A stretch of DNA of 64,000 bases from positions 64,040 through 128,039 of the forward strand of contig CAYMYO010000001.1 of assembly GCA_964394685.1 (NCBI GenBank), read 5' to 3'. The stretch is from an uncultured Gammaproteobacteria bacterium (GTDB lineage: Bacteria; Patescibacteriota; Microgenomatia; UBA10105; UBA927). Below the pieces are notes generated by a model. That model worked only from the letters and a program-made list of their open reading frames with translations. It searched no databases and had not been told where the DNA came from. Made by a program: the position numbers and the translations under genes. Positions 1 through 39,972 of the stretch are shown piece after piece. Position 1 is the stretch's first letter. Every line of letters begins with the position of its first letter.

Positions 1-444
1 GCGTGGGTTTCCGGAGGAAGCGGAGCGTTTAGAAGAAGTATATGGAATCAACTTGGTGGTATGGATACTATCTACAACCCGTTTTATTGGGAAGATATTG
101 ATTTATCCTACCGCGCCAGAAAGGCCGGTTGGAAGATAATATTTGAATCAGAGAGCATGGTTGATCATTATCACGAAGAGGGGAAGATTAAACAGGAATT
201 TAGTCAGGTAGACGTGAAGAGAATTGTGTATAGAAATCAATTTATTTTTATCTGGAAGAATGTGACGGATACAAGAATTCTTTTGTCGCATGTATTCTGG
301 ACTCCAATTCGCCTCATGCAGGCTCTCTTAAGCAATAATATGGTAATGATACAAGGATTTCTATGGGCGTTAATGTATATTGGCTCTATTTTTCACAAGC
401 GGTGTAAACAGAAAATATTATATAAACGGACTGATAATGAATAA
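1..444 (+). CDS. Glycosyltransferase family 2, C-terminal fragment (5' end lies outside the window)
   Basis: The reading frame is open from base 1. The translation AWVSGGSGAFRRSIWNQLGGMDTIYNPFYWEDIDLSYRARKAGWKI matches the GT2 C-terminal motif (F.ED.DL..R....G). The ORF-track M at position 61 is internal. Confidence 0.7.
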   Translation, partial: AWVSGGSGAFRRSIWNQLGGMDTIYNPFYWEDIDLSYRARKAGWKIIFESESMVDHYHEEGKIKQEFSQVDVKRIVYRNQFIFIWKNVTDTRILLSHVFWTPIRLMQALLSNNMVMIQGFLWALMYIGSIFHKRCKQKILYKRTDNE

Positions 445-1909
445 AAAAACCTTTTTTATTATTCTTTTCTGTATTACGGCCTTGGGTTTTCTTCTTCGTT
501 TCTGGAACTATTCTGGTCGGTATGGACTTGCGTATGACCAGGCGCATGATGCAATTGTCGCTCGCGAAGCCGTAAGAGAAGGGAAAATACCACTTGTCGG
601 ACCTTTTTCTTCCGCCGGTCCATTTCAAACAGCAGGAACTTGGTATTGGCTTCTTATGGTGCCAACAGCTCTGTATCCGTATTCTGTGTTATCACCGTGG
701 ATATTTTTAACATTTTGCAGTGTGCTTTTTATTATTGGCATGGGGTTGTTTGGTAATTATCTTGAAGATAAATCGTTTGGATTAATTCTTGCAACTCTCA
801 CGGCTGTTTCAACGGCTCAAATAGATCAATCTATAAATTTAACGAATCAAACGCCGATTCCATTTTTTTCGTTTCTCACCATTGTATGCGCTGTTTTATA
901 TTTGAAACATAAAAAAATGTTCACTGCTTTTTTAATGGGATTTTTCGCAGCTTTTGCTGCATCTATTCATTTACAAGGAGTGTCATTGGGTATTATTGTT
1001 TTTATTGCACTGCTTTGTAGTGGGAAATCTGCTTTACAATCTATCATTGCTGCTTTTATAGGTGCTGTAATCCCAATGATCCCACTGTTTTTATGGGATA
1101 CATCTAATGATTTTGTTAACAGCAAAAATATGTTGTACTACTATCGATATGATCAGTTTAATATATCTCTTGATGTACTTGGACGCCGATGGCTTACCTA
1201 TATTAATGATTTTTGGCCTCGTGAATGGTCGCATATAGTGGGTGGTGTGCCAAATATTGCCATAGGAATTGCACTAATCGTTATTCTCTTTTTTCTCTAT
1301 TATGTATGGAAACGAAAATTACCTTTACATTGGATAGTAATATTTATTTCTTTCTTCTGCATGGTTGTTTTGGTTCGCTATACGCGAGTTCCCATTTTTG
1401 CGAGTTTCATAACTTTTATGCATCCATTTGTGATTCTGATTACTGGATGGGGAATATATAAATTAATACAGCACTATCGATATATTGGATACCTGTTTTT
1501 ATTATGTGTTGTTATTGGAAGTTTTTGGAAAACTTCAATTGTAGCGTTTACACCCAAAGTTAACTGGACCGAAAAAGCTGCAAAAGATATACGAAATATG
1601 TTGATAACAAAATATCCAAATGAGAAATTTGCTATTTATGATTATAAGTATAATGAAACACGCAGGTCAGTACCATATGTATTATTCTTAGACGAGGTAA
1701 ATTTACTTTCAGATACGGGAAGAAGAATCGGATTTATCCCCTCGAAAGCCCAGGAAATTCTACAAACAGATATTATTTCAACGGATGGCGGGCTTATTTC
1801 AGACCTTACATCGTCCTCAAGTGCAACACTCTTAACTGATGGTTGGGCTTTTGTAAATCCATCAAAAATATATTCATCTACAGAAGAATGGCGTTCAATA
1901 TCTAAATGA
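437..1909 (+). CDS. Polytopic membrane protein, GT-C-fold glycosyltransferase-like (YDQ / GPF-GP-YY motif family)
   Basis: Start MNKKTFF at 437 overlaps the upstream stop in ATGA fashion. There are ten or more predicted TM segments. The N-terminal loop AYDQAHDAIVAREAVREGKIPLVGPF..G.WYW is shared with paralogs at 12921, 14410 and 19740. Confidence 0.6.
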   Translation: MNKKTFFIILFCITALGFLLRFWNYSGRYGLAYDQAHDAIVAREAVREGKIPLVGPFSSAGPFQTAGTWYWLLMVPTALYPYSVLSPWIFLTFCSVLFIIGMGLFGNYLEDKSFGLILATLTAVSTAQIDQSINLTNQTPIPFFSFLTIVCAVLYLKHKKMFTAFLMGFFAAFAASIHLQGVSLGIIVFIALLCSGKSALQSIIAAFIGAVIPMIPLFLWDTSNDFVNSKNMLYYYRYDQFNISLDVLGRRWLTYINDFWPREWSHIVGGVPNIAIGIALIVILFFLYYVWKRKLPLHWIVIFISFFCMVVLVRYTRVPIFASFITFMHPFVILITGWGIYKLIQHYRYIGYLFLLCVVIGSFWKTSIVAFTPKVNWTEKAAKDIRNMLITKYPNEKFAIYDYKYNETRRSVPYVLFLDEVNLLSDTGRRIGFIPSKAQEILQTDIISTDGGLISDLTSSSSATLLTDGWAFVNPSKIYSSTEEWRSISK

Positions 1910-3237
1910 GTATTCGACACAGTTTAATTATAATAATAGTTATTGCGTTTATTACTAGAATTATTGCATCCATATGGTCTTTTGGGTATCGGGATAATAC
2001 GGACGTACTGCGATACAAGGATTGGGCAAGAATTAGTTATGTATATGGATTAAGTGAAACATATCGGAAAGAACATATTACCTTCGGAACGCTCCCAAAT
2101 AATCAGCCGCCGGGACTTCTTTATATATTATCTACTTCTTATAGACTTCATATTCAATTATCAAAAGTATTACTTCGATTCATGCCTCATTCAGAAGAGG
2201 TGACAGGGTGGTTAAACGGTCCGGTAATGAGTTTTATGCTGCGTTTGCCTTCGATAGTGTCTGATTGTATTATCGGAATATTAATTTTTCTTTTTGTTAT
2301 GAGATATAACAAAAAACGAGGAGGATTTATTGCATCAGCGCTCTATTTATTTAATCCGGTTGTTATTTATAATAGCGCTGTTTGGGGTCAAGTTGATTCG
2401 ATTATTAATATGTTTTTTCTTCTTTCTCTTTGGATGTTATATAAAAAACACATGTTTATTAGCATGACCCTATTATGTTTTTCTATTCTGACAAAATTTT
2501 CTCTTTTATTTATAGTCCCTTTTTATTTTCTTCTTTGGTATAAAGAAGTGAAAAGCAGATGGGATTATCTGTATGCTGCAGGATTAGCTTGTGTGACCGG
2601 TATTCTATTTACTTTTCCAATTTCAACAAAACCTATTCATTGGCTGATAGGTTTTATACAGCAAAACGCTACAGGAGAAATGACGAATATTACGGCATTT
2701 GCAATGAATATATGGTGGGTTATATTCCGTCCATTCATTACAATAGGAAACCCGAATAATTTATTTTCATTTAGTGAAGTGCGTCTTATTAATTCACCTG
2801 AATCATCTTTACTGTGGTTTGGTATACCGCTTTTTGTATGGGCCGTCGCTCTATTTATCGCCTGTAGTATTCCGTTATATTTTGCTATCTACAAAAACAA
2901 AAAGAGCAACACGCAACATATATTTATAGCTCTCGCATGTTATTCGCTTTTAGCTTTTACATTTTTACCTCAAATGCATGAACGCTATATGTATCCAGCT
3001 TTTGTCTTACTTGCAATTTCTTTGGGATTTGCAGGAAATCTTGTTATTCCATACGTCATAGTAACCGTATTGAATATGATTAATGTGTATATTGTTTGGC
3101 ACCCAATGCCAGTGAGTTTTTTCCCATATCAAATCTGGACAGAAGTTTGGTTTCAATGGACAGTCAGTCTCTGCACTGTAATTGTTGCGTGTGTTGTATA
3201 TATTCAAACGCTCCGATTTTTATATGAAAAAAGATAA
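1906..3237 (+). CDS. Polytopic membrane protein, probable GT-C-type glycosyltransferase
   Basis: 443 aa, highly hydrophobic, and its start overlaps the upstream stop by 4 bp. Its context among GT-C genes supports the call. The family is not confidently recognised. Confidence 0.5.
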   Translation: MSIRHSLIIIIVIAFITRIIASIWSFGYRDNTDVLRYKDWARISYVYGLSETYRKEHITFGTLPNNQPPGLLYILSTSYRLHIQLSKVLLRFMPHSEEVTGWLNGPVMSFMLRLPSIVSDCIIGILIFLFVMRYNKKRGGFIASALYLFNPVVIYNSAVWGQVDSIINMFFLLSLWMLYKKHMFISMTLLCFSILTKFSLLFIVPFYFLLWYKEVKSRWDYLYAAGLACVTGILFTFPISTKPIHWLIGFIQQNATGEMTNITAFAMNIWWVIFRPFITIGNPNNLFSFSEVRLINSPESSLLWFGIPLFVWAVALFIACSIPLYFAIYKNKKSNTQHIFIALACYSLLAFTFLPQMHERYMYPAFVLLAISLGFAGNLVIPYVIVTVLNMINVYIVWHPMPVSFFPYQIWTEVWFQWTVSLCTVIVACVVYIQTLRFLYEKR

Positions 3238-5530
3238 TCTCATTATTGTAATTATCGCTTGTGTTATCGGTATATCTATATTTTGGAAAAGTAATATATT
3301 AGGCCTTGTTCCGTTTCCCGGTGACTATCTCTTAAGCTGGTACGAACCGTGGAAAACATATTTTACTTCTAACGGTGTACCAATACTTATTCATAAAGCG
3401 ATACTTGATGATGTATTCCGGCAATTATACCAATACAAAATGATTGCAGCAGATGACATTCGTCATGGGTATTTACCGCTTTGGAATTCATATAACGGGT
3501 CGGGAATGCCTCTTATGGCAGTTATGCACGCGGGATTTCTTACTCCGCTTATGGTATTGTTCGTAACACTCCCTGGTTGGCTAGCATGGACAATATATAT
3601 TGCCATTCAACCCATATTGTTATCCATCGGAATACTTTGGTATGTAAGAAAAATTGGTCTCTCATGGATGCCATCGATAGTTGTAGCGATTATTTACGCT
3701 ACATCCGGTTTTGTTACCGTTCGCTATCTCTATGGAGAGTATCTTTATGTTGCAGCCTGTCTGCCGTTTTTATTAGGGATTATTGAAACGTATCGTGAGA
3801 ATAAGAAATCGAAAAGTATATGGAGTATCCCGCTTATCATCTTGTTTATGATGATTTCAGGTCAACCACAAATGATTTTGTATGTTCTTTTCATGTTCGT
3901 TCTTTACGCACTAATTCGATTAAAGGAGACAAAGAAAGCATATATAACAGTAGGTATTTTATGTTTGACGGGATTATTGTTGTCAGCAATTCAACTTGTT
4001 CCGACTATAGAGCTCTACAAACAAGCAAATATGAATCCCCAGGCTTCAACATCTATTATTGAAAAGTTCTTGCTTCCCATTTCTCAATTAATTTCAATTA
4101 TCATTCCCAACTATTTCGGCAACTCTGCCACCTATAACTATTGGGGGATTGGAGATTATGTTGAAACAGTGGCCAGTGTCGGCAGTGTGGCAATAGTATT
4201 ATTCGGTTTTAGTTTACTATCAGGTAAAAGAAATGAGATTCGGACTTTTTTTCTTACGATTGTCGGACTGACAGTGTTATTAGTAGTGCGTTCTCCCTTG
4301 ACAGAATGGCTGTATACACTTCCCATTCCGATTATTTCAACAGGAGTACCAACAAGAATATTTTTCTTAACGACGTTTTCAATCTGTATTCTTTCAGGTT
4401 TAGGTTTGGATTATTATCTGCGAAACGTGCATGTACGCAGGGAACGAATTTGGATGGGAGCAGTGTGTATCATAGTTTTGCTATCTGCTTTAATTGGCCG
4501 CTTTATTGTTGAAACAAAAGGGCAAATGACTGCGTTTCGAAATTCTTTATTCGAAATAGCGATCTTACTTGTCGCTATATTTGTATTATTATTTATTCGA
4601 AAAATTAAGTCATTAAAACGTATACAAGTTTTGATATATGTTGTAATTCTTTTGCAGTTTGCTGTGGGATTATATAACAGTAACAAATTCTTACCTTTCT
4701 CCTCTCGTAATACCATATTTCCATATTCACAAGTCATTGATAAGCTACGAACAATAGCTTCTTTTGATAGGGTGACGGGACTTGGTTCTGCGGTAGTTCA
4801 ACCAAATATTGCTACAGCACTTCATCTCTATGATCCGAATTATTATGATCCGTTATATATTAAAAGGTACGGTGAACTAGTGGCATACGCGAATTCAGGG
4901 AGCGTACCGGATATTCTTCCGAGAAGTGATGTGATGATAAATAGTGAAGTAACACCGAAACAGGAAGTAAATCAAAGAAGAGAGAGATTGTTTCAATTGC
5001 TAAGTGTTCGGTACCTATTGCTTCATGCTAAAGAAAATAATTTTACCATTCAGGAAAACTCTCAAGCGCTTCCTAGAGCATATATAGTAAAGAATTATGA
5101 AAATATTAGTAATACTAATCAATTATTAAATCGATTGTTCGACCCGCTATTCGATCCAACAAATTCTGTCATAGTAGAAAAGGATATTCCTTTCGCAAAG
5201 ACAATAAATACCCAGAGGAATGATAGCAGTAAAATCATTTCTTATCAGTCGAATCATGTCGAAATTCAGGTTTCTGCATCAACTCCCGCCATTCTTGTTC
5301 TTACAGACACCTATTATCGAGGATGGAAAGCATACGTAGATAATGTTGAAACTCCGATATATCGAGCGAACTATTCACTTCGAGCTATTATTATTCCCCA
5401 GGGGAATCATGTGGTTCAATTTATTTATAGACCGTTATCAGTTACGATCGGATTATATATTACTTTAGGGAGTGGAATACTGTATATTAGTATTTTGATA
5501 TATATGTTTCGCAAAAAACCTGCTCATTAA
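3224..5530 (+). CDS. YfhO-family membrane protein (GT-C-like glycosyltransferase)
   Basis: The N-terminal motif LVPFPGDYLLSWYEPWK is typical of YfhO. The protein is large and polytopic, with a C-terminal YRGWKAYVDN beta-rich domain. The MKKDNLII start is preferred over the upstream M. Confidence 0.65.
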   Translation: MKKDNLIIVIIACVIGISIFWKSNILGLVPFPGDYLLSWYEPWKTYFTSNGVPILIHKAILDDVFRQLYQYKMIAADDIRHGYLPLWNSYNGSGMPLMAVMHAGFLTPLMVLFVTLPGWLAWTIYIAIQPILLSIGILWYVRKIGLSWMPSIVVAIIYATSGFVTVRYLYGEYLYVAACLPFLLGIIETYRENKKSKSIWSIPLIILFMMISGQPQMILYVLFMFVLYALIRLKETKKAYITVGILCLTGLLLSAIQLVPTIELYKQANMNPQASTSIIEKFLLPISQLISIIIPNYFGNSATYNYWGIGDYVETVASVGSVAIVLFGFSLLSGKRNEIRTFFLTIVGLTVLLVVRSPLTEWLYTLPIPIISTGVPTRIFFLTTFSICILSGLGLDYYLRNVHVRRERIWMGAVCIIVLLSALIGRFIVETKGQMTAFRNSLFEIAILLVAIFVLLFIRKIKSLKRIQVLIYVVILLQFAVGLYNSNKFLPFSSRNTIFPYSQVIDKLRTIASFDRVTGLGSAVVQPNIATALHLYDPNYYDPLYIKRYGELVAYANSGSVPDILPRSDVMINSEVTPKQEVNQRRERLFQLLSVRYLLLHAKENNFTIQENSQALPRAYIVKNYENISNTNQLLNRLFDPLFDPTNSVIVEKDIPFAKTINTQRNDSSKIISYQSNHVEIQVSASTPAILVLTDTYYRGWKAYVDNVETPIYRANYSLRAIIIPQGNHVVQFIYRPLSVTIGLYITLGSGILYISILIYMFRKKPAH

Positions 5531-7208
5531 TTGTATCTATTGCCAACTGAGCAGTGGTAAGCTTATTTGGGTATTGTTTTAAATTATACTTCTGACAAAT
5601 AACATCATTTTTTATGTTGTAAACTTGCCCTCCGTCTTTGAGTCGGGAAATACTAAGATATAAATTCATATCTGACGGGGTGCATACGGCATCCATAATT
5701 ATTGTTTGATTATTATCGGCTTTATATATTAATTCGCATCCTCGGAAACTGACCCCATCCAAATCAAAGGAGGCATTGATATTTGATTGGGACAATGAGC
5801 GAATGGTCTTTTTTGAAAGACTATTGGTATAGAAAAGATATTTACTTAAATAATCACGGTTTGATGGAGAGTAGAGTGTGATTGGTATATCTTTTTGTTT
5901 GGCGAGGATTATATACCGTGAAAGTACGCGCATATGAAAGCTTCCGAATTCCTGCAGCGGGTGTTCATAAAAGTATATATATCCAAATTGAAACACACTG
6001 TATAAATACAGCATCGTAATTATTCCGCCGATAATATAAGACCATCGTTTTTTGAAACTAGAAATGGATTCCTTAATACCAATGCCGACAAATAGAATAA
6101 GAAACGGGAACATAAACGCAAGGTGTCCGGAGAAATCTCCTGATAATTTAAAAAATAACTGTGGAAATGTTCCAATAAGGACAAACAGACTCAAATAAAG
6201 AAAATAGATTTTTCTTTTTGCAAATAGAAATAGTCCTCCGAGAATAATACTTATGCAGTCGATCATATAGAAGAAACCATGAGTACGAATAGGGAAAAAT
6301 AGATCTCCTTCAATAAACAAATAAGGAAGAGAAAAAATTCGAATAAGTTTTTCTGCTAATAATTTTATATATATGGTGTATTTGTTAACAAGTTGGTTTG
6401 TAAATGGAAATACAAGGGAATCTTTTCTAATCTCATTTACTTGACTTACGACTTTGGGATCATTCGGAAGGAAAATGTCAGTCACCCGTAATCTCGTTGC
6501 AGAAGTTTTAATCAGAAATGCGTATATAGCAATAATGACAATGCATATACCCAAAAGAACAAAATACGCTTTTAAGGACTTTGGTTTGTTTTTAATATAT
6601 GCAAACGCTATAGCAATAAGTACAAATGGAAGCAGTATTATTTTTGTTCCTATGTATGAATAAAAGGCAAGAAGTAGAGGAATGACTGCCCATAATATTT
6701 TCCAACCTCGTTTTTTTAATATAACGACAAATGCAAGAAGGTAAAAAAACGTTGCCGGTGTTGATTCATACCCGGTACGTCCCATAACAACAAGCCAGGG
6801 GTTAATAGCAGCGACAAGACCGGTTGCAATTGCTATTGGCGTTCCGAAAAGATGTTGTGCTATGAAGTAAAGAATAATTACGATGCCGACTGAAAGAATT
6901 GCAAATGGTAGATGTGCCATAAATAGTGAAAAAGGGAAAATACCACTAAACGGAAGGTGGAGAAAATACGGCAGTTCTGCTTGTTGCTGATTCGGAGGAT
7001 ATCGGAAAATAAGAGCGTTGAATATGTTCCAGGTTCCTGTCATATCATGACCTGTGAGTGTAACTGATTTTGCAGTGAGCGGGTAGATAAGTTCATCGCC
7101 GCTGATTGCATTTGGAATACGATCAAGATACAAAAAACGAAATAACGCTGCCAAAACAATAATGATCGCCAGCGGTATAAATGTAAGAAGTTTTTTATTT
7201 TTTTTCAT
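5487..7208 (-). CDS. ArnT/PMT-like (GT39/GT83-type) membrane glycosyltransferase
   Basis: The N-terminus MKKNKKLLTFIPLAIIIVLAALFRFLYLDRIPNAISGDELIY carries the first-loop DE motif characteristic of polyprenyl-phosphate-sugar-dependent GT-C enzymes. The protein is polytopic. Confidence 0.65.
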   Translation of the reverse strand: MKKNKKLLTFIPLAIIIVLAALFRFLYLDRIPNAISGDELIYPLTAKSVTLTGHDMTGTWNIFNALIFRYPPNQQQAELPYFLHLPFSGIFPFSLFMAHLPFAILSVGIVIILYFIAQHLFGTPIAIATGLVAAINPWLVVMGRTGYESTPATFFYLLAFVVILKKRGWKILWAVIPLLLAFYSYIGTKIILLPFVLIAIAFAYIKNKPKSLKAYFVLLGICIVIIAIYAFLIKTSATRLRVTDIFLPNDPKVVSQVNEIRKDSLVFPFTNQLVNKYTIYIKLLAEKLIRIFSLPYLFIEGDLFFPIRTHGFFYMIDCISIILGGLFLFAKRKIYFLYLSLFVLIGTFPQLFFKLSGDFSGHLAFMFPFLILFVGIGIKESISSFKKRWSYIIGGIITMLYLYSVFQFGYIYFYEHPLQEFGSFHMRVLSRYIILAKQKDIPITLYSPSNRDYLSKYLFYTNSLSKKTIRSLSQSNINASFDLDGVSFRGCELIYKADNNQTIIMDAVCTPSDMNLYLSISRLKDGGQVYNIKNDVICQKYNLKQYPNKLTTAQLAIDTINEQVFCETYISKY

Positions 7209-9606: not shown

Positions 9607-9664
9607 ACGGATGCTATTCGTATTATATCAATATTCTGATATACTTTTGTTAAAGCAAAGTGAT

Positions 9665-14408: not shown

Positions 14409-14409
14409 T

Positions 14410-15648: not shown

Positions 15649-15677
15649 ATAATCTCGGTATTCGATATAATACGATT

Positions 15678-17308
<1,631 letters not shown>

Positions 17309-17324
<16 letters not shown>

Positions 17325-18600: not shown

Positions 18601-19753
18601 TATGAGGAGAATTGCATATCTGTATTACATTTTTATACTCGTATGTATCGTTGTTTTTTCTTATGGGTTTAAAGATCCGAATTTAACGTTAACAACCTCA
18701 CCGTTTCTTATTTCCATCACTCACCAACTCACGTACGTTGTGTATGTACTTCGCCCGTTAGCAACGCTCATTTTTTTAGGTATTCTTTTGAGTCTTTGGA
18801 GTTTTTATGCCATTGTATGTAGGTATGGAGAGAAATTATTTTCTAATTTAAAACATCTTGCGTTTATTATTATCGCATCAGCATTCATTCTTTCATTTTC
18901 TTATCCCGCGTTGACACATGATCTATTTAACTATATGACCACAGCCAAGGTAGCATTCACCCATGGAGAAAATCCATATGTTGTCATGCCGATTGAAATT
19001 CCAAATGAACCTTACCTAGCATTTACCAGGGCAGCTAATAAATATGCATTGTACGGGCCAATATAGATTGCCATAACTGCACTACCACACTACCTTGGTA
19101 ATAATAATATTTGGCAAACAATTATCATGTTTAAGTTATTAAATACATTTTTTTATCTTGTGTTTGTATATATGGTGTATCAGATAACAAAATCCTTGAA
19201 AAATACACTATTTTTCGCATTCAATCCGCTTATTCTTATCGAAACACTCGTTTCAGGTCATAACGATATTGTCATGATGGTATTAGCAGTGGCTGGACTT
19301 TATCTGTTTGAGCAAAAGAAAATATCGGAAAAAATAATTAGCATAATATTGTTATTTGCTAGTGTTTTGATAAAAGGAGCAACAATTGTCCTTTTACCGC
19401 TTCTGTTTGTAAGAAAATTTGACCGTGATCGCTTACTGCTTACTGCTTACTGCTTACTGTCCATCGTCTTTTTCATCGCAGCCCCCATTCGGGAAGAACT
19501 CTATCCTTGGTATGCAGTATGGCTTGTATGTATTGTGTCGTTTCTTCCAATCAAAAAGCATATGTGGCTGTACGGTTTTACAACAGTTCTAACTTTTGCA
19601 TTAGAGCTGCGGCATTTGCCATATATGTGGATGGGGTATTATGAAGGGCCGGGACCAGTACTTCGCACCATACTTACCGTTGTACCAGTTGGTATATATA
19701 TTGTTTATACCGGAATGCAATACCTATCAAAAAGACAAAATGAAAAAATTTAA
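18581..19753 (+). pseudogene. DUF2029/GPI-mannosyltransferase-like polytopic membrane protein interrupted by a single in-frame TAG (19064-19066)
   Basis: ORFs 18581-19066 and 19127-19753 are in the same frame, with 18581 = 19127 mod 3. They are separated only by TAG and read GPI*IAITALPHYLGNNNIWQTIIMFKLL across it. Both halves are hydrophobic, and their combined length of about 390 aa is typical for the family. Confidence 0.55.
19432..19459 (+). repeat. (CTTACTG)x4 perfect heptanucleotide tandem repeat inside CDS (encodes LLLTAYCLL)
   Basis: Direct reading shows four perfect copies. The TACT core relates it to the ATACTNN heptad family. Confidence 0.85.
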
Positions 19754-21218
19754 GACGCTGTTTATATTACTTGGATTATTTTGTATTGCAGTTGCACTCC
19801 GCTGGTATTTGTTGCCAAGTCATCTTTTTTTTGGACCGGAACAGGGAAGAGATTTCCTTGTAGTACGAGATATTGTAGTTAATCACAAATTGACCCTCAT
19901 CGGGTCAAAAACAGACATTTCCGGAATATTCCACGGACCAATATTCTATTATCTTGCAGCAATCCCGTTTGCTGTAACAAAGGGAAATCCTCTTGGTGTA
20001 TCGCTGTTCATGATCATCATTCAGGCCATTGGTGTTTTCTTTATTTATCTTCTTGGTAAAGATATAACAAAAAGTAAGCGGGTAGGACTGATGACAGCTG
20101 GTTTGTATGCAATATCATTTCTTGGAATTGTATATGGACGGTGGTTATCAAATCCACCGCTTTCTATTCCATTTTCAATTATTTTTATATGGAGTTTCGT
20201 TCGTATGTTGCAGGGAGATAGACGGTATCTTTTTCTTACGGCAATATCATTTGCATGTTTAGGTCAGGCAGAATTTATTAACTTTTTACTTTTCGCTGGT
20301 ATTGTATTTGTGCTGATTGTACGATTTTGGAAGAAAGTTTTGGCTATACCCATGTCATACATAGGAATGGCATTGATTGTAGCTTTTGCATTGTCTTTTG
20401 GAAGCTATCTGTTGTTTGATCTGCGTCATGAGTTTTTGATTTCAAAAAGCGTCATGGGGCTTGTAACTGGTACCTCTGGGTATGGGGTTTCATTTCTTGA
20501 GTCAATGAAAAATGCATCACTCATGTTCGTCTCACAGTTTGGAATGATATTTGGAATTCATATGTGGCAAATAGGTGCTATTTGTTTCGCGATCACACTT
20601 TTTGTATTAGGAGTTGAACGGAAACGACATGAATATATTGATTTAGTTATCATTTGGCTGTTAGTACCGATTCTTATCCTTATGGGACTGCGACATAGCG
20701 TACTGGAACAACTGTATGTTGGACTTGTTCCAGGTATGATTCTTGCAATTGCCATCTTTATTGAGTGGTTAATTCGAAAAATATCAATACTTGGGATTGT
20801 CGTGGGATTAAGTGTGATCGCGATGAGTATATACGCATGCGTGAGTTATCTTCCAAGTAATTCCTTCGTGTTTTTCCAAAGCCCGCAACCGAACGTCAGA
20901 TATCGCGACCAACAAAAGGTCGTGACGAGGATTTATCAATTGGCAAACGGCGACAATTTCTATTTTCAGTCATATACAATTCCATATTTTTGGCAGGATG
21001 CATGGACGTATCTATTTTGGTATCAGGGGATAGAAAAGTATGGATATATTCCGAAGGAAGAGGATAAATCCGTAGTCTATGTTATTGTTCAAAAAGATCG
21101 ATCTAATCCAACATTTCAAGCAAATTGGTATGAAAAAACTGTTTCAGCGTGGGGGAAAAGAACAGAAGGGTTTACAATTGGAGAATATACTGTTGAAATA
21201 CGAGAGCGAGAACAGTAA
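19740..21218 (+). CDS. Polytopic membrane protein, GT-C-like (EQ-motif family paralog)
   Basis: It carries FFGPEQGRDFLVVRDIVVNHKLTLIGSKTDISGIFHGPIFYY. The MKKFKTLF start at 19740 overlaps the upstream stop. The C-terminal soluble domain is about 100 aa. Confidence 0.55.
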   Translation: MKKFKTLFILLGLFCIAVALRWYLLPSHLFFGPEQGRDFLVVRDIVVNHKLTLIGSKTDISGIFHGPIFYYLAAIPFAVTKGNPLGVSLFMIIIQAIGVFFIYLLGKDITKSKRVGLMTAGLYAISFLGIVYGRWLSNPPLSIPFSIIFIWSFVRMLQGDRRYLFLTAISFACLGQAEFINFLLFAGIVFVLIVRFWKKVLAIPMSYIGMALIVAFALSFGSYLLFDLRHEFLISKSVMGLVTGTSGYGVSFLESMKNASLMFVSQFGMIFGIHMWQIGAICFAITLFVLGVERKRHEYIDLVIIWLLVPILILMGLRHSVLEQLYVGLVPGMILAIAIFIEWLIRKISILGIVVGLSVIAMSIYACVSYLPSNSFVFFQSPQPNVRYRDQQKVVTRIYQLANGDNFYFQSYTIPYFWQDAWTYLFWYQGIEKYGYIPKEEDKSVVYVIVQKDRSNPTFQANWYEKTVSAWGKRTEGFTIGEYTVEIREREQ

Positions 21219-21220
21219 CT

Positions 21221-22813
21221 ATGAAAAAGTCGATTATCATGTTCGTTATACTGGCGATGATCATCGGTTTTGCAGCTCTACCTCTATTTAATTCATCATA
21301 CCTACCAACTCATGACGGAGAATACCATATTATCCGGATTGTAGAATTTTCAAAAATGCTTGCCTCTGGTTATGTATTTCCCCGTTGGGCGCCAACGTTA
21401 AATAGCGGATATGGAATACCGATTTTTGAGTTTCATTATCCGCTCCCTAACTATATCGGTTCATTTGTTCGACTATTCACGCATGACGCAGTCTATGCGT
21501 ATCAAATATCCATGGGACTTGGGTATATCATTGCAGCTCTTGGGTCATTTTTATGGCTTACAAGCCTGTATGGACCGTTTGCAGCAGCTCTTGGAACTGT
21601 CGTGGGAGCATATGTACCCTATTGGTTTGTAGATATATACGTTAGAGGATCTATAGGAGAAGTGTGGGCGATAGCAATACTTTTTTTCATTCTTTGGGCA
21701 ATTGAAAAGAAGCAACATATTTACACTGCAATTATGTATGGATTATTGCTTCTTAGCCACAACATTCTTGGAATGGTGTTTACTCCATTTTTATTCATAT
21801 ATATGATAATTCGAAATAAAAAAGCTATTGGAAGTCTTGTTTGGGGAATTGGCTTATCGGCCTATTTTTGGCTCCCAGCGCTACTAGAAGGGAAATATGT
21901 TGTTGGGCTAAACACTGTTAATTTTAGAGAGCATTTTGTTGCCTTGTACGAATTATTGATTCCGTCCTGGGGGACGGAATTCTCAGGGAGGGGTTTTTCA
22001 GGCAGTAAAATATCATTCCAATTAGGCGTTATTCCAATACTGATTATTATTGCATCACTTATAACGATAATTTTGGAGAAACAGAAAACCAAAAATATAT
22101 TAGTGAAATGGTTCTTGGTATTAGTTGGATTACTTCTCGTTTTTGTGCTGCCTTGGTCAAAGGGGATTTGGGAGGTAACGAGACCACTACAGTTTGTTCA
22201 ATATCCTTGGAGATTATTGTCGTTTATGATTCCAATAACAGCGGTACTGACTGCCTATTTGGCCAAAAAATCAAAAAAACCTTACGTTATGGTTATGCTG
22301 GCTATTTTGGCTGTCATTGCCACGTTTCCCTATACCAGAAAAGTTCACTATGCACCACGAAATGAAGCATATTATATGACTCGAAGTAATTTTACAGATG
22401 GAACATCATCTATGGGAAATAGCTTTTCAACGATTTGGACAGGTTGGAAAAAGGAGCGGCCGGAATCAGAATTAGTTCTTCAAAATGGGAAAATGACAAA
22501 AAAGGGAACATGGCAATATTTGAAAAAAGAATTCAACGTTCGTATGGATGCTGAGGGAATAGTGACACTCAATACGCTCTATTTTCCCGGTTGGATCGTC
22601 GTTGTTGATGGGAAAAAAGTGCCAATACTCTACCAATCTGACGGGATTATTCGTGCCTCAATTCCAGCTGGCATTCATGCTATCAAAATTCAATTTACTG
22701 ATACAGCTCCAAGAACTATTGGAAATATCATATCAATAGCCAGTTTGGTTGGGATCATTGGATGGGGTATACTGACTGTATATGAGAGTCGCAATCGACA
22801 CAACACCACTTAG
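21221..22813 (+). CDS. Membrane protein with PTPS-related domain (paralog of 15678-17324)
   Basis: The sequence LPTHDGEYHIIRIVEFSKMLASGYVFPRWAPTLNSGYGIPIFEFHYPL...YWFVDIYVRGSIGE matches the paralog. The C-terminal LYFPGWIVVVDGKKV motif is present. The gene ends with TAG. Confidence 0.6.
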   Translation: MKKSIIMFVILAMIIGFAALPLFNSSYLPTHDGEYHIIRIVEFSKMLASGYVFPRWAPTLNSGYGIPIFEFHYPLPNYIGSFVRLFTHDAVYAYQISMGLGYIIAALGSFLWLTSLYGPFAAALGTVVGAYVPYWFVDIYVRGSIGEVWAIAILFFILWAIEKKQHIYTAIMYGLLLLSHNILGMVFTPFLFIYMIIRNKKAIGSLVWGIGLSAYFWLPALLEGKYVVGLNTVNFREHFVALYELLIPSWGTEFSGRGFSGSKISFQLGVIPILIIIASLITIILEKQKTKNILVKWFLVLVGLLLVFVLPWSKGIWEVTRPLQFVQYPWRLLSFMIPITAVLTAYLAKKSKKPYVMVMLAILAVIATFPYTRKVHYAPRNEAYYMTRSNFTDGTSSMGNSFSTIWTGWKKERPESELVLQNGKMTKKGTWQYLKKEFNVRMDAEGIVTLNTLYFPGWIVVVDGKKVPILYQSDGIIRASIPAGIHAIKIQFTDTAPRTIGNIISIASLVGIIGWGILTVYESRNRHNTT

Positions 22814-23816
22814 TTCAGGACATAGTAATCGAGGGATTGGTGTATACACAAAAGAGCTTATTAGAGCGCTCCAAACATATGAAAAAGGCCATGAATATGT
22901 CGTTATTAATGGAATAACGAAACAGACCGCTCTTGTAGATGTGGTTCATTATCCTTTTTTTGATCCTTTCTTTCTCACTCTTCCACTTTCTAAACCACAT
23001 CCGACAGTCGTAACGGTCCATGACCTCATTCCTCTCGTATTTCCGGAACATTTTCCTATAGGACTTCGTGGAAATATTAAATGGCAAATACAGAAACAAT
23101 CGTTAAAAGGAGCAAAGCACATTATTACTGACTCAATTGCGTCTAAGTATGATATTCATCGGATTCTCGGACGGTCTGAAGAGAATATCCATTCAATTCA
23201 TCTTGCCCCATCTTCGTTATATGACCGGATCCCGACAAAAGAAGTTATTGTTGCGGTTCGGAAAAAATACAACCTGCCCGAAGATTTTCTTTTATATGTT
23301 GGCGATGTAAATTGGAACAAAAATGTTCCCGGACTTATCAAAGCTACTGCTTCCATCTCTACTCCACTCGTATTGGTAGGGCGTGCATTTCTTGACACAT
23401 CACTTGCAGAAACAAGAGAAATTAACGGCCTTATTTCGAGTCTGGGAAGAGAAAAGTTTATTATCCGTCCGGGGTTTGTGACAGATAGCGATCTCGTATG
23501 CCTGTATGAGATGGCGACGTGTCTTATTCAGCCTTCACTTTACGAAGGATTTGGTTTACCTGTTTTGGAGGCATTTATGAGTGGCTGTCCAGTTGTCGTA
23601 GCAGATAACTCTTCACTATCCGAAATTGCCGGTCCCGGCATCCGAGTGGATGCGCAGTCCTGTGAGTCGATGAGCAAAGGAATACAAACAGTGTTAGAAT
23701 TCTCAAAAGAAAAGCGCGCGCAACTTATAGAATGTGGACACGCGTGGGTGAAACAATTTTCATGGAAGAAAGTTGCTCATGAAACAGTCGCTGTATATGA
23801 AAAGGCTTTGGGATAA
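22782..23816 (+). CDS. Glycosyltransferase family 4 (GT-B)
   Basis: The motif [30 protein letters not shown] is the GT4 signature E-x7-E region. The N-terminal RVAIDTTPL..GIGVYTKEL is also GT4-like. Confidence 0.85.
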   Translation: MRVAIDTTPLSSGHSNRGIGVYTKELIRALQTYEKGHEYVVINGITKQTALVDVVHYPFFDPFFLTLPLSKPHPTVVTVHDLIPLVFPEHFPIGLRGNIKWQIQKQSLKGAKHIITDSIASKYDIHRILGRSEENIHSIHLAPSSLYDRIPTKEVIVAVRKKYNLPEDFLLYVGDVNWNKNVPGLIKATASISTPLVLVGRAFLDTSLAETREINGLISSLGREKFIIRPGFVTDSDLVCLYEMATCLIQPSLYEGFGLPVLEAFMSGCPVVVADNSSLSEIAGPGIRVDAQSCESMSKGIQTVLEFSKEKRAQLIECGHAWVKQFSWKKVAHETVAVYEKALG

Positions 23817-24894
23817 ATATCGTTTTGTTATTGTCGCGTTTATTATTTGGAGAACTGTACTTTATTTTGGAGAACTGATATCAATAACTGTTCCCATATA
23901 TTCAAAAACATATATGGGACTTATTCCATGGGCGAATACGGACGGACTAAATTACATAAGAATTGCCCAGTGGGGATACGGACACTTAAACGAAGCATTT
24001 TTTCCCTTGTACCCACTCATCCTTCGGGGTATTCACTCTATTATTCCGTTGTCGTTTGAAACTATCGGTGTCGTTGTTTCTACTGCCTGTTTTTTCATTG
24101 GGCTTACTGTGTTGTATGGGATAGTAGCACAATTGTCAATTAAGAAAGCAAGATGGGTAGTTGTATGTATTCTTTCTTTTCCTACCGCATTTTTCTTCAC
24201 CGCTGTGTATACGGAGGCACTATTTTTTTTGTTAACAGTGCTGGTACTCTATTTTTCACACAAAAAGAACTGGTTATTGGCAGGCGTGTGCGTGAGTCTG
24301 GCAAGTGCCACTCGTATGATTGGCATATGCACCGCAATATTTGTTCTTTATGAACTATGGAAGGCGAAATACAAGCTCAAACTTTTTGATATTGTCGGAC
24401 TCCTCGTTATGCCTATGGGGCTTCTTTCCTATATGTATTATTTATTTATTCAGTATGGAGATCCACTACGGTTTGTCCATATTCAGGCATTGTATGAGAT
24501 AAATAGAAGCGTAGGACGCTTCATCTTTCTTCCACAAGTAGTATGGAGATATTTAAAAATTCTGGTTCTCGCTGTCGGAAAACCGACCATTGTGGCATAT
24601 GGCGTTTCGATTGTTGAATTTGTGTTGACAATGGGCGCTTTTTTTCTGCTTTATTACGGGTGGAAAAAGAAGGTGAAATTAAGTTATGTGCTTTATAGCT
24701 TAGTTGTGTTAATTATTCCAACGCTCACAGGTACGTTTGCGTCAATGCCCCGATATATTCTTACGATTATTCCGTTATCTATCATTCTTACGCATATTCC
24801 AAGGAATTCTATTAAATACGTTCTTATTAGTATATTTTCTATTCTCCAACTAGTATCGGTAATGTTATACTTGCGAGGTTGGTTTATTGCATGA
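23797..24894 (+). CDS. PIG-V-like (GT76-type) mannosyltransferase family membrane protein
   Basis: The sequence WANTDGLNYIRIAQWGYGHLNEAFFPLYPLILR matches the Mannosyl_trans2 N-terminal signature (W.sDg.hYl.IA..GY...laFFPlyPll.R). The protein is polytopic. The start is uncertain, and the track ORF begins at 23773. Confidence 0.65.
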   Translation: MKRLWDKYRFVIVAFIIWRTVLYFGELISITVPIYSKTYMGLIPWANTDGLNYIRIAQWGYGHLNEAFFPLYPLILRGIHSIIPLSFETIGVVVSTACFFIGLTVLYGIVAQLSIKKARWVVVCILSFPTAFFFTAVYTEALFFLLTVLVLYFSHKKNWLLAGVCVSLASATRMIGICTAIFVLYELWKAKYKLKLFDIVGLLVMPMGLLSYMYYLFIQYGDPLRFVHIQALYEINRSVGRFIFLPQVVWRYLKILVLAVGKPTIVAYGVSIVEFVLTMGAFFLLYYGWKKKVKLSYVLYSLVVLIIPTLTGTFASMPRYILTIIPLSIILTHIPRNSIKYVLISIFSILQLVSVMLYLRGWFIA

Positions 24895-25577
24895 AAACAG
24901 TATCTATTATCATACCGGTATACAACGAAGAACAAACGATTCAAGAAATACTTATGCGCGTTGAATCGGTTGATCTTCCAAATTGGAAAAAGGAAATCAT
25001 CGTTATTGACGATGGTTCTACTGATAAAACAAAAACTATACTGCGAAAATGGGAAAAGAAAGTTGAAGTGATATACAAAGCGAAAAATGAAGGAAAGGGA
25101 AGTGCGGTGAGTATCGGATTATCAAGGGTAACAGGAGATATTATTCTCATTCAGGATGCTGATTTGGAATATAGTCCAAAGGACTACCTAACACTTTTTG
25201 CGCCATTTGATAATCCTCAGGTACATGTTGTCTATGGTTCTCGTTTCTTAGGATCGCATTTATCTACCATGTATCTGTATGCGCAAGGAAATAAGTTTGT
25301 TACATTTATAACAAATATCCTTTTTAACACCAATATTACGGATATGGAAACAGGGTATAAAGCGGTAAAAAGAGAGGTGATTGATGGATTAACGTTGAAA
25401 TCGAAACGCTTTGATATGGAACCGGAACTAACCGCGAAAATATTAAAAAAAGGATATCAAATATATGAAGTGCCAATATCCTATTTTGGTCGTAAATTTT
25501 CCGAAGGGAAAAAACTAACGTGGCGGGATGGAATCGTTGCATTTTGGACTCTTATTAAATACAGGTTTACAGATTGA
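24891..25577 (+). CDS. GT2 polyprenyl-phosphate sugar synthase (DPM1/GtrB-like)
   Basis: The N-terminus VSIIIPVYNEEQTIQEIL...IIVIDDGSTDKT...IILIQDADLEYSP is GT2 DPM1-like. The 232-aa soluble domain has the DAD motif. Confidence 0.8.
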   Translation: MKTVSIIIPVYNEEQTIQEILMRVESVDLPNWKKEIIVIDDGSTDKTKTILRKWEKKVEVIYKAKNEGKGSAVSIGLSRVTGDIILIQDADLEYSPKDYLTLFAPFDNPQVHVVYGSRFLGSHLSTMYLYAQGNKFVTFITNILFNTNITDMETGYKAVKREVIDGLTLKSKRFDMEPELTAKILKKGYQIYEVPISYFGRKFSEGKKLTWRDGIVAFWTLIKYRFTD

Positions 25578-25578
25578 T

Positions 25579-26838
25579 ATGAACATCAGGAACGTACTGA
25601 AACGAATTAGCTCTCACTCGCTTGCAAAAGACAGTGTCATTGTTTTGGCTGGATCTATGGGGGCAAACGTTGGCTCCTACCTTTACCATCTGGTGATGGG
25701 GCGATTGCTTGGACCAATTGGATATGGTGAATTGTCATCACTTTTATCCATTTTTTACATTTTTACTGTTCCTCTTAATGTTGGCGCAATAGTACTCGTT
25801 AAATTTATTTCTTCAATGAAAGCGCGAAGCCAACTCGGACAAGTGCAGACGCTTTTCGTTAAAGTGACAAAAGCTTGTCTTATCGGATGCATGGTTGTTT
25901 TTCCTATTATTATTTTAACGTCACCGTTTATTAGTACGTTTTTGCACATAGATTCAACCATATTATTTATCCTTGTCTATATTATCTTTGTTTTTTCATT
26001 ATTAACAGTCATTGCAGGAAGCGCGCTTCAAGGATACCAGAAATTTTTATGGGTAAGTATTTTAGGAGCCGGATCGATACTCGTGAAGCTTGTTTTGAGT
26101 ATTCCCGTGGTTACGTGGGGGGTATACGGAGTGCTTCTTGCGACGGTCGGATCAACAATGGTCATGTATCTTCTCTATTTCCTTCCTCTGCGGTTTATTT
26201 TTCAAATAAAAGCATCACCGCTTACCCTCACTGTTCGAGAGGCAATGCGTTATGCGGTACCAACGCTTCTAATTATTCTTGGTATGACCTCATTATATTC
26301 AACAGATATGATATTAGTTCGTCACTTTCTCCCCGCTCATGAAGCGGGGTTATATGCATCCTTAACGGTTCTTGGAAAGATTATTTTTTATGCCTCTTCA
26401 GCAATATCGATTGTTATATTCCCGGTGTTATCTGAACGTACGACAAAAGGGGAAAAAGGAACAAAGCTTATATTTATTGGCTTGGGGACTGTTACAGCCG
26501 TATCAGCAGGGATTACACTTCTCTATTTTGCATTTCCTGAGTTTATTATCCGTACGTTTTTTGGAAGTTCCTATATTCAGGGAGCACCGCTTTTGGGTTT
26601 GTTTGGAGTATTTTTAGTGTTGTATTCGATTGGAAACATGTTTACGACCATATGTATGGCCTTAAGCAAACTGACTATGTGGTTTGTTCCGGTTGTTTGT
26701 GCCGTTATTCAAATTATTGGCATAACCCTCTATCATAATTCCGTAACAAGCGTCATTTGGGTGAATATCGTTTCCTGTCTTCTATTAGTTGTAAGCCTTT
26801 TAGGGTATTATAGGAAACAAATCTATGAAAAAGTTTAG
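25579..26838 (+). CDS. Polysaccharide flippase, Wzx/MOP-superfamily
   Basis: The protein has about 12 TM segments. The N-terminal block NVLKRISSHSLAKDSVIVLAGSMGANVGSYLYHLVMGRLLGPIGYGE is typical of O-unit flippases. The ATG lies immediately after the upstream TGA. Confidence 0.7.
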   Translation: MNIRNVLKRISSHSLAKDSVIVLAGSMGANVGSYLYHLVMGRLLGPIGYGELSSLLSIFYIFTVPLNVGAIVLVKFISSMKARSQLGQVQTLFVKVTKACLIGCMVVFPIIILTSPFISTFLHIDSTILFILVYIIFVFSLLTVIAGSALQGYQKFLWVSILGAGSILVKLVLSIPVVTWGVYGVLLATVGSTMVMYLLYFLPLRFIFQIKASPLTLTVREAMRYAVPTLLIILGMTSLYSTDMILVRHFLPAHEAGLYASLTVLGKIIFYASSAISIVIFPVLSERTTKGEKGTKLIFIGLGTVTAVSAGITLLYFAFPEFIIRTFFGSSYIQGAPLLGLFGVFLVLYSIGNMFTTICMALSKLTMWFVPVVCAVIQIIGITLYHNSVTSVIWVNIVSCLLLVVSLLGYYRKQIYEKV

Positions 26839-27616
26839 TTTGATTGTTCCGGTTTATAAACAGGAAAAGACAATTAAGGAAAATATCCTTTCCATTCTTG
26901 ATACGCTGTCAAAAGTTGCGATTCCGTTTGAAATCATTCCGGTTATTGATGGGAAACTAGATAACAGTGAACGGGAAATAAGAAAGATTAAAGATTTACG
27001 TGTTCAGGTTGTTGGGTATAAGAATAATCATGGAAAGGGATATGCGGTCAGATACGGGTTTGCCCATGCCGATGGAGATGTTGTCGGGTTTATGGACGCA
27101 GGCGGAGACTTAAAACCGGAAGCGCTTCCAGTCATGCTTGCTCAGTTTGAGTTTCAAGATGCGGATGTAGTACTGGGCAGTAAACGGCACCCTGATTCAA
27201 AAGTCGACTACCCAACGTATAGGATAATTCTTTCCTGGGTCTACCAAAAGTTTGTGAAACTGTTGTTTGGTCTTGAGGTTCGCGATACGCAAGTTGGTAT
27301 GAAATTATACAAACGAAAGTTACTTGAAGATGTGCTTCCGCGACTTCTGGTAAAACAGTTTGCGTTTGATATTGAGATTCTTGCTGTGGCGTACCATTTG
27401 GGGTACAGAAAAATATATGAATCACCTGTAGAGATAAACTTTTTCTTTTCAAAAACAAGTATTGTTTGGTCAAAATTGTCTCGAGTTATCTATAATGTGA
27501 TAGCTGATACGTTGGCCGTGTTTTATAGGTTGAAGATTAGGCGATATTACGATAATGCTTCAAAACGGAAATGGCGGTTTGATCCGGAATTGAACTTTCG
27601 AATTAATATAGGTTAG
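26825..27616 (+). CDS. GT2 polyprenyl-phosphate sugar synthase (DPM1-like), second copy
   Basis: The sequence FSLIVPVYKQEKTIKENI...VIDGKLDNS...FMDAGGD...LGSKRHP is GT2 DPM1-like. The C-terminus is amphipathic. Confidence 0.75.
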   Translation: MKKFSLIVPVYKQEKTIKENILSILDTLSKVAIPFEIIPVIDGKLDNSEREIRKIKDLRVQVVGYKNNHGKGYAVRYGFAHADGDVVGFMDAGGDLKPEALPVMLAQFEFQDADVVLGSKRHPDSKVDYPTYRIILSWVYQKFVKLLFGLEVRDTQVGMKLYKRKLLEDVLPRLLVKQFAFDIEILAVAYHLGYRKIYESPVEINFFFSKTSIVWSKLSRVIYNVIADTLAVFYRLKIRRYYDNASKRKWRFDPELNFRINIG

Positions 27617-28756: not shown

Positions 28757-28765
28757 TGTATTGCT

Positions 28766-35300: not shown

Positions 35301-35314
35301 ATACGATATACTAT

Positions 35315-38967: not shown

Positions 38968-38973
38968 CCAGTG

Positions 38974-39948: not shown

Positions 39949-39972
39949 GGTATCTATACTATATTTTACACA

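Follow-up and report, generated by a model that had tools for sequence, protein, structure and literature searches.

The 64,000-nucleotide stretch of contig CAYMYO010000001.1 analysed here, henceforth referred to as the window, carries in its first 27,616 bases a dense array of polytopic membrane genes of the glycosyltransferase-C (GT-C) type. Fourteen such genes have GT-C-type support, which is strong for 13 and weak for one (380-1909), and together they occupy 22,240 of the 27,616 bases (80.5%). Their companions are two DPM1/ArnC-type family 2 glycosyltransferases (GT2), a MOP (Wzx-like) flippase, one further GT2 and one GT4. The GT-C genes all lie on the + strand except two (5487-7208 and 7195-9606) and are tightly packed, with stop and start codons overlapping. 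The open reading frames (ORFs) of positions 1-27,616 were found at the coordinates given in a preliminary description of this DNA, which had counted 15 polytopic GT-C-type proteins in 27 kb; the concentration was upheld, and the count is revised to 14 GT-C-type genes plus the flippase. The array is composed as follows (TM, transmembrane segment; E values refer to Pfam matches):

380-1909, + strand: polytopic, distant DQ-loop PMT_2-like member; 509 aa, about 10 TM, YDQ after TM1, start probably the ATG at 437
1906-3237, + strand: lineage-specific GT-C protein, listed as "unknown" in the preliminary description; 443 aa, D33 invariant in the first external loop
3182-5530, + strand: YfhO-family GT-C; 782 aa, 14 TM, large external domain before the last TM; PF09586 4e-18
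5487-7208, - strand: DE-loop PMT_2 (GT39/GT83-like) GT-C; 573 aa, GDE; PF13231 7.7e-6, 26.6 bits against a gathering score of 26.1
7195-9606, - strand: YfhO-family GT-C; 803 aa; PF09586 6e-22
9611-11287, + strand: PMT/PMT_2 GT-C with a WDE loop; 558 aa, likely start 9665; PF13231 1.7e-14, PF02366 1.2e-12
11284-12924, + strand: PMT_2 GT-C with a WDE loop; 546 aa; PF13231 5.3e-12
12921-14408, + strand: DQ-loop PMT_2-subfamily GT-C; 495 aa, FDQ
14410-15648, + strand: DQ-loop PMT_2 GT-C; 412 aa, WDQ; PF13231 3.1e-8
15678-17324, + strand: PF10131 (PTPS_related) GT-C-clan membrane protein; 548 aa, NDGQDH loop; PF10131 1.4e-10
17303-18085, + strand: cytoplasmic GT2; 260 aa, DAD at residues 87-89; PF00535 3.9e-21
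18581-19753, + strand: GT87/MptA_B-like GT-C gene; ORFs 18581-19066 and 19127-19753 in one frame, separated by a TAG at 19064-19066
19641-21218, + strand: DQ-group PMT_2 GT-C with a PEQ loop; likely start 19740; PF13231 1.2e-11
21221-22813, + strand: PF10131 GT-C-clan membrane protein; 530 aa; PF10131 1.7e-11, YfhO-like C-terminal module 4.6e-5
22782-23816, + strand: cytoplasmic GT4 glycosyltransferase; PF00534 8.6e-23
23773-24894, + strand: PIG-V/Gpi18-like (COG5542) GT-C; database gene call of 365 aa, D57 invariant in the first loop
24879-25577, + strand: DPM1/DPMS/ArnC-type polyprenyl-phosphate sugar synthase, GT2; no TM helix, DDG and DAD; PF00535 2e-34
25528-26838, + strand: MOP-superfamily (Wzx-like) flippase; about 11 TM; PF01943 1e-8, 35.4 bits against a gathering score of 28.2
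26825-27616, + strand: second DPM1/ArnC-type GT2; 263 aa, MDAGGDL at the DAD position; PF00535 2e-25

Pfam, run on each window ORF of at least 150 aa, placed nine of the membrane genes above the gathering score of a GT-C family (YfhO twice, PMT_2 five times, PF10131 twice); the other matches above that score in positions 1-27,616 were to GT2 (three), GT4 and Polysacc_synt. Genes without a threshold match of their own were placed through homologs (12921-14408 and 23773-24894) or through the PF26314 match of an ortholog (18581-19753), and the placement of 1906-3237 and of the downstream gene 46137-48293 is based on structure. For the unassigned membrane proteins, Pfam at E values up to 10 returned nothing useful, and none of the GT-C genes had an equivalog-level match in NCBIfam. 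A hydropathy scan gave 6-14 TM in each of the 14 genes, 11 in the flippase and 11-12 in a pair of AftD-like genes downstream.

All-against-all BLASTP resolved paralogous groups within the array: a YfhO pair (3182-5530 and 7195-9606(-), 30% identity, 2e-105), a DE-loop trio (5487-7208(-), 9611-11287 and 11284-12924), a DQ-loop quartet (12921-14408, 14410-15648, 19641-21218 and, weakly, 380-1909), a PF10131 pair (15678-17324 and 21221-22813, 6e-56) and a DPM1-like pair (24879-25577 and 26825-27616, 30% identity, 1e-20). As read from the sequence, the trio carries the motifs GDE, WDE and WDE, and the quartet YDQ, FDQ, WDQ and PEQ. The two YfhO-like, two PF10131-like and three ArnT/PMT-like DE-loop proteins of the preliminary description are thus reproduced as paralogous groups; of its four [FWY][DE]Q members, three have the motif, 19641-21218 reads PEQ instead, and 380-1909 is joined weakly. 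Every candidate has an acidic residue early in the protein, past the first hydrophobic segment, in what would be the first external loop (motifs overall GDE, WDE, WDE, YDQ, FDQ, WDQ, PEQ, NDGQD, HDGE, PGD, PGD, NTD, NTDG, GGD and HD). The aspartate is invariant or nearly so in the family alignments of 1906-3237 (D33), the PIG-V-like protein (D57), the AftD-like proteins (D45) and the DQ-loop proteins (D36).

The YfhO pair scored 65.6 and 78.3 bits against a gathering score of 28.5, and both proteins have 14 TM, the last of which follows a TM-free stretch of about 250 residues. Within the trio, 5487-7208 matched 9611-11287 at 5e-21 and 11284-12924 at 5e-17, and the latter two are 34% identical. 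All three have the DE motif of protein O-mannosyltransferases, and 9611-11287 alone matches PF02366 PMT (48.4 bits) besides PMT_2. The same protein gave NCBIfam matches to Agl23 (5.6e-10), Pmt (1e-5) and ArnT (1.4e-3), all far under the cut-offs; for the Pmt equivalog (PrMnsylTfPmt) the score was 24.6 bits against a cut-off of 800.

These features could be explained by a dedicated protein O-mannosylation system, in which the DE-loop PMT-like (perhaps also the YfhO/Pgf-like) enzymes would use polyprenyl-phosphate-mannose from the DPM1-like synthases to modify Ser/Thr residues of secreted proteins, pilins or an S-layer. Actinobacterial Pmt and Streptococcus mutans Pgf are precedents for protein glycosylation. 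The Pgf system (PgfS, PgfM1, PgfE, PgfM2) likewise combines a GT2 with YfhO-type membrane glycosyltransferases, and NCBIfam linked 26825-27616 to PgfS (6e-13) and the YfhO C-termini, including that of 7195-9606, weakly to PgfM1/PgfM2 (8e-10 and 7e-9). Against this, the Pgf scores fall far short of the 500-1500 bits set as equivalog cut-offs, the PgfM matches span only the C-terminal ~90 residues, and PMT_2 also includes ArnT-type lipid and glycan transferases. The Pfam scans of the window, which covered the Ser/Thr-rich targets or S-layer genes suggested in the preliminary description, found none, and no GDP-mannose pathway gene was identified. O-mannosylation alone would also not require at least 14 GT-C enzymes of eight groups, and we regard it as an improbable account of the array.

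The DQ-loop gene 12921-14408 matched Pfam by itself only at 2.2, but was tied by BLASTP (9e-31, to 19641-21218, and 4e-17) to paralogs whose own matches exceed the PMT_2 threshold. Because many of its 194 homologs carry PF13231 and one was named "ArnT-like" by the Joint Genome Institute (JGI), the DQ-loop family is regarded as a Patescibacteria-specific PMT_2 subfamily. Gene 380-1909 had no match in Pfam or NCBIfam and was related to 12921-14408, 14410-15648 and 19641-21218 at 1.8e-4 to 3.9e-5. The PIG-V-like gene 23773-24894 also had no Pfam match itself, and its assignment, which agrees with the preliminary description, is by transitive homology only. It has 2795 homologs, of which those with a named source are from Patescibacteria and several are annotated as "Gpi18-like mannosyltransferase" (JGI); among 34 sampled homologs (36-83% identity), PF04188 was matched by 14 (best 5.3e-11), GT87 by five and PMT_2 by three. 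Profile searches against the PDB with the PIG-V-like, AftD-like and DQ-loop families found nothing, and single-sequence PDB searches with 9611-11287 and 12921-14408 returned nothing relevant.

Gene 1906-3237 had no Pfam match. Its homologs number 204, the named ones being from Patescibacteria/Microgenomates, and the family profile matched glycosylphosphatidylinositol (GPI) mannosyltransferase 1 (GPI-MT-I, 3e-11) and ALG6 (5e-4) in the PDB. An AlphaFold (AF2) model built from 34 sequences reached a predicted local distance difference test (pLDDT) of 91.7 and a predicted template-modelling score (pTM) of 0.91; like the other AF2 model, it is a helical bundle. The best 25 Foldseek matches in the PDB were all GT-C enzymes, among them ALG6, PimE, PIG-U, GPI-MT-I, STT3, ALG9, PglB, AglB, ArnT and Pmt4, and the modelled fold resembles ALG6, PimE, GPI-MT-I and PIG-U. 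Both modelled "unknowns", 1906-3237 and 46137-48293, matched only GT-C enzymes at high probability. A transporter identity for the membrane proteins was rejected on the Pfam GT-C families and the Foldseek results, in which transporters appeared at a probability of about 0.1 only; the preliminary description had proposed both checks, and its assignment of these proteins outside the transporter families was sustained.

With the lumenal GT-C enzymes of the eukaryotic endoplasmic reticulum (PMT1-7, ALG6/8, PIG-M, PIG-V, PIG-U) and DPM1, the window proteins share the fold and some profile similarity, namely of the 1906-3237 family to GPI-MT-I and ALG6, of 23773-24894 homologs to PF04188, and of 24879-25577 to TM-less DPM1. 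However, MIR domains and a GPI or N-glycan pathway context were not found in the window, the nearest relatives are all Patescibacteria, and there is no sign of orthology. A eukaryotic origin was rejected on the grounds that the closest homologs are all from Patescibacteria. The terms "eukaryote-type" and "mannosylation" in the preliminary description are accordingly dropped: PMT_2, YfhO, PF10131, GT87, COG5542 and DPM1-like GT2 are ordinary bacterial families, and nothing in the window identifies the sugar.

Both small GT2 proteins at the end of the array belong, by profile and PDB matches, to the DPMS/ArnC/GtrB/PpgS branch. For 24879-25577, the NCBIfam matches were AglJ (6e-35), Dol-P-hexose transferase (4e-19), ArnC (1e-18) and PpgS (3e-16), all under the equivalog cut-off, and alignment to Pyrococcus furiosus DPMS (PDB 5mlz) extended over residues 6-211 (206 residues, 2.3e-19) with DAD aligned. 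Protein 26825-27616 matched ArnC (PDB 9hwj, 2.7e-10 over residues 2-202) and DPMS (8e-9), and ArnC, PgfS and PpgS in NCBIfam under the equivalog cut-offs. The catalytic DxD, whose lack in the DPM1-like genes would count against the interpretation according to the preliminary description, was present in 24879-25577 and absent from 26825-27616, where residues 90-96 read MDAGGDL (DAG) and the first DDG is also cut to DG; both changes are kept in a 70%-identical ortholog (L007:13079-13870). The further GT2, 17303-18085, gave mixed NCBIfam matches in which the DPM1 branch is not clear, and is syntenic in the related loci L003 and L007. The Wzx-like flippase between the synthases was identified as such by its MOP/Polysacc_synt match. 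Wzx-type MOP flippases usually act on polyprenyl-diphosphate-linked oligosaccharides.

Comparison of ORF tables, translations and precomputed gene calls showed the block to be syntenic in four related metagenome-assembled genomes (MAGs), with identities of 45-77%; in one of these it lies on a contig of 1.02 Mb. The closest loci, in the same identity range, are in MAGs of Patescibacteria and Candidatus Gottesmanbacteria. L003 and L005 have the gene order and sizes of the window. GCA_049287205.1 (Microgenomates, the 1.02-Mb contig) retains the GT4, PIG-V-like, DPM1-like, MOP flippase, GT2-263 and GT4-370 genes as well as upstream PMT_2, GT2 and MptA_B-like genes. Rearrangements are local: the ortholog of 5487-7208 is displaced in L003 (16898-18673), which also has an extra 685-aa membrane gene. 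A 1906-type gene occurs unclustered in a more distant lineage. Because the block is syntenic in four related MAGs, the array is a conserved lineage trait and neither a chance pile-up nor a hypervariable locus, and the "highly variable" glycome of the preliminary description is not supported.

The nearest relatives of every gene tested were Patescibacteria, and by this sequence affiliation the host is an uncultured, Gottesmanbacteria-like member of the Microgenomates within the Patescibacteria, with a small genome. The two closest MAGs (L002 and L003) are labelled "uncultured Gammaproteobacteria bacterium". Since the named protein-level relatives are all Patescibacteria/Microgenomates, this submitter taxonomy is probably wrong.

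Gene 18581-19753 departs from the preliminary description, which had listed one DUF2029-like protein; the family affiliation (GT87/MptA_B-like) holds, and the gene is split into two ORFs. Its TAG (19064-19066) aligns with an invariant Trp (TGG) in L003:15711-16901 and L007:6268-7389, intact orthologs are 373-396 aa long, and both halves are well conserved apart from the stop. The joined halves still had no Pfam match; a GT87 match (0.0046) falls in the C-terminal half, and PF26314 MptA_B_family is carried by the L007 ortholog. The TAG may have arisen by a recent nonsense mutation, may be polymorphic among strains, or may reflect an error in the assembly. An alternative genetic code was rejected as the cause, the TAG being a lone one in a window that otherwise reads cleanly in code 11. 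The gene directly upstream is small:

18082-18600, + strand: conserved protein; 172 aa, a single TM predicted for residues 7-25 and taken for a signal anchor, weak DUF5667 match only

In L003, L005 and L007, the place between the GT2 and the GT87-like gene is likewise taken by an ORF of similar size, and the window protein may be an accessory subunit or an acceptor.

The window as a whole (64 kb, G+C ~36%) is coding almost throughout, with nearly all genes on the + strand and frequent stop/next-start overlaps; no tRNA was found in it. By Pfam, it is one unbroken glycan-biosynthesis island, and the concentration of GT-C genes reaches past 27.6 kb with at least two more and a probable third, so that the island as a whole holds at least 16-17. 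The features downstream of the array are:

27647-46165: nucleotide-sugar modification and cytoplasmic glycosyltransferase block (Pfam)
46137-48293, + strand: AftD-like GT-C of the "GGD-SRLY" family; 718 aa, about 11-helix TM domain, beta-rich external domain, C-terminal TM helix
48280-50213, + strand: two S-adenosylmethionine (SAM)-dependent methyltransferases between the AftD-like genes (Pfam)
50210-52408, + strand: second AftD-like GT-C; 732 aa, GGDDSRLY; BLASTP 4.6e-18 to 46137-48293
53459-55090, + strand: polytopic membrane protein, probably a distant PF10131-like GT-C; BLASTP 4e-6 to 15678-17324 over 281 residues

The block at 27647-46165 encodes a GT4, three DegT aminotransferases, a hexapeptide acyltransferase, a GFO/IDH oxidoreductase, GT2s, an epimerase/dehydratase, a carbamoyltransferase, a weak GNAT match, methyltransferases and a UDP-GlcNAc 2-epimerase, with an embedded thiolase, short-chain dehydrogenase/reductase (SDR) and ornithine transcarbamylase (OTCase). 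Within it, positions 36306-42829 hold a NodU/CmcH-type carbamoyltransferase, the weak GNAT match, a methyltransferase, the thiolase, the SDR and an ornithine/aspartate carbamoyltransferase, enzymes that hint at carbamoylated or acylated sugars. Protein 53459-55090 also had a partial NCBIfam match under the cut-off to "MmpA family trehalose lipid delivery protein" (7e-15).

The AftD-like family comprises 742 representative homologs, many of about 1200 aa, and G44, D45 and R48 are invariant in the family of 46137-48293. Neither window gene matched Pfam or NCBIfam, nor did six of seven homologs, the seventh matching methyltransferase domains only; the AftD (DUF3367) family model gave no sequence match to either gene. 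The relation to AftD is structural, consisting of a GT-C membrane domain and an external beta-rich domain that superposes on AftD. The 1421-aa homolog P0335 is a natural GT-C::methyltransferase fusion with the methyltransferase domain at the C-terminus, and because of this fusion, glycan transfer and methylation are suggested to be coupled.

These genes bear on whether the product is a lipoglycan or heteropolysaccharide along the lines of actinobacterial lipomannan (LM), lipoarabinomannan (LAM) or arabinogalactan, elongated and branched outside the membrane by successive GT-C enzymes and partly methylated. PimE, AftD, AftA and GPI-MT-I are among the structural neighbours, PF26314 occurs on the ortholog of the GT87-like gene, the AftD-like genes flank two methyltransferases, a GT-C::methyltransferase fusion occurs naturally in P0335, and the number of distinct GT-C groups suits a multi-step polymer. 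Identity to the mycobacterial and corynebacterial set (Emb, AftA-D, PimE, MptA/B/C, Pmt) is nevertheless 9-16%, so the similarity is at the level of the fold only. Neither phosphatidylinositol or PimA/PimB-type anchor genes nor decaprenyl-phosphate-arabinose pathway genes were recognised in the window. Actinobacterial envelope GT-C genes are mostly dispersed, whereas those of the window form a single block in a patescibacterial host. The lipoglycan explanation, which we consider possible although on the unlikely side, is a special case of the interpretation preferred below and does not contradict it.

Further ORFs lie at and around the edges of these blocks. Positions 61-444 encode the C-terminal part of another glycosyltransferase-like ORF (WEDIDLSYRARKAGW), without a Pfam match and recognised by resemblance of sequence only; since the window opens inside this ORF, the island probably extends upstream of position 1. 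Two polytopic ORFs, 52369-53454 (7 predicted TM) and 55081-56937 (10 predicted TM), match no family, apart from a faint DUF6798 similarity of the latter. The 189-aa ORF at 60178-60747 (-) corresponds to only the N-terminal half of a GT4 and may be a gene remnant. A polytopic ORF at 63417-64000 (+) with at least 5 TM runs past the window end and has no Pfam match.

The unmatched membrane ORFs 52369-53454, 55081-56937 and 63417 to the window end, together with the Wzx-like flippase and the large nucleotide-sugar/GT4/GT2 block, would be compatible with a conventional Wzx/Wzy polysaccharide locus that has many membrane accessories, its polytopic proteins acting in transport, polymerisation or ligation (Wzy/WaaL-type) and not as polyprenyl-phosphate-sugar-dependent transferases. 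Nine genes over the Pfam thresholds of GT-C families and the GT-C-only structural matches of the two modelled proteins already largely refute this explanation, and no Wzy_C/O-antigen ligase match was obtained anywhere in the window. It is accordingly given very little credence.

We favour the interpretation that the array forms the membrane-side half of a glycan island for the cell envelope, extending over more than 64 kb, and that its GT-C enzymes transfer sugars at the outer face from lipid-phospho-sugars; we consider this likely. It builds on family and fold membership, paralogy, motifs and synteny as observed at the locus, and nucleotide-sugar and GT4/GT2 genes occupy the remainder of the window. 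We infer the donor type, topology, division of labour and acceptor as follows. At the cytoplasmic face, the GT2 proteins 24879-25577 and 26825-27616 would load single sugars from nucleotide sugars onto polyprenyl phosphate. In parallel, the GT4/GT2 enzymes and the downstream sugar-modifying enzymes would make a polyprenyl-diphosphate-linked oligosaccharide for export by the MOP flippase 25528-26838. At the outer face, 14 to 17 GT-C enzymes (YfhO, PMT_2 DE-loop, PMT_2 DQ-loop, PF10131, PIG-V-like, GT87/MptA_B-like, ALG6/PimE-like and AftD-like) would move the sugar from the flipped lipid-phospho-sugar to an envelope acceptor, for which a wall or membrane glycopolymer and a surface protein are candidates, singly or together. 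The divergent paralogs would most likely serve different linkages or acceptors, giving stepwise extracytoplasmic elongation, branching and decoration. Parallels are the GT-C sets of mycobacterial LM/LAM/arabinogalactan and the action of CsbB-YfhO or Gtr on teichoic acids and O-antigens. In the three-step proposal for CsbB/YfhO, a GT2 makes the polyprenyl-phosphate-sugar, the lipid is flipped, and a GT-C protein transfers the sugar outside (PMC5836110).

Several observations weigh against this interpretation. Neither a GtrA/SMR-type polyprenyl-phosphate-monosaccharide flippase, nor a priming phosphoglycosyltransferase, nor an identifiable acceptor was found in the window scans; the preliminary description had seen here a "complete logic", of which the polyprenyl-phosphate-sugar donor principle is sound and the completeness is not. 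Because DAG replaces DxD, 26825-27616 may be inactive or atypical. The GT87-like gene contains a stop codon, and no other GT-C assignment is as weak as that of 380-1909, which is tied to its group by weak BLAST matches. Some PMT_2-like proteins score best, under the cut-off, against Agl23 ("flippase activity-associated"), and a transferase role need not apply to all the paralogs.

Compared with the three-component systems GtrA/GtrB/GtrX, ArnC/ArnEF/ArnT, CsbB/YfhO and GtlA/GtlB (PMC5836110), the window shares a DPM1/GtrB/ArnC-branch GT2 adjoining a GT-C protein with an acidic first external loop, as well as the YfhO and PMT_2/ArnT-type families. Those systems comprise one GT2 and one GT-C, whereas the window has two or three GT2s and 14-17 GT-C genes of about eight groups, and its sole flippase is of the MOP/Wzx type. 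Literature searches returned no description of GT-C arrays in Patescibacteria, but only incidental remarks that Peregrinibacteria and Saccharibacteria have multiple copies of dolichol-phosphate mannosyltransferase.

The families involved are all known and common in bacteria; the array stands out by its scale, its organisation as a single block and the lineage of its host. Three GT-C subfamilies are without a Pfam/NCBIfam model, namely the ALG6/PimE-like 1906-3237 family, the DQ-loop PMT_2 subfamily and the AftD-like "GGD-RLY" family. The implied biochemistry, polyprenyl-phosphate-sugar-dependent GT-C transfer, is well known, and the advance accordingly concerns scale, organisation and lineage and not principle. 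Patescibacteria (the candidate phyla radiation, CPR) are an abundant group, for the most part uncultured, whose envelopes have hardly been characterised. Tentatively, and with more doubt than confidence, Microgenomates-type Patescibacteria with genomes of ~1 Mb might carry a lipoglycan or heteropolysaccharide of complex, partly methylated structure on their surface and assemble it almost wholly outside the membrane, using an operon-like battery of at least 16 GT-C enzymes that parallels the mycobacterial LM/LAM/arabinogalactan machinery. If so, the attachment of these presumed episymbionts to host cells could depend mainly on that glycan. The cluster offers a compact, syntenic candidate set for work on envelope chemistry, host attachment and phage receptors, and a glycan island of at least 64 kb, with GT-C genes making up about 80% of its first 27 kb, suggests that an elaborate coat of surface glycan or glycoprotein is a core trait of this Gottesmanbacteria-like lineage.

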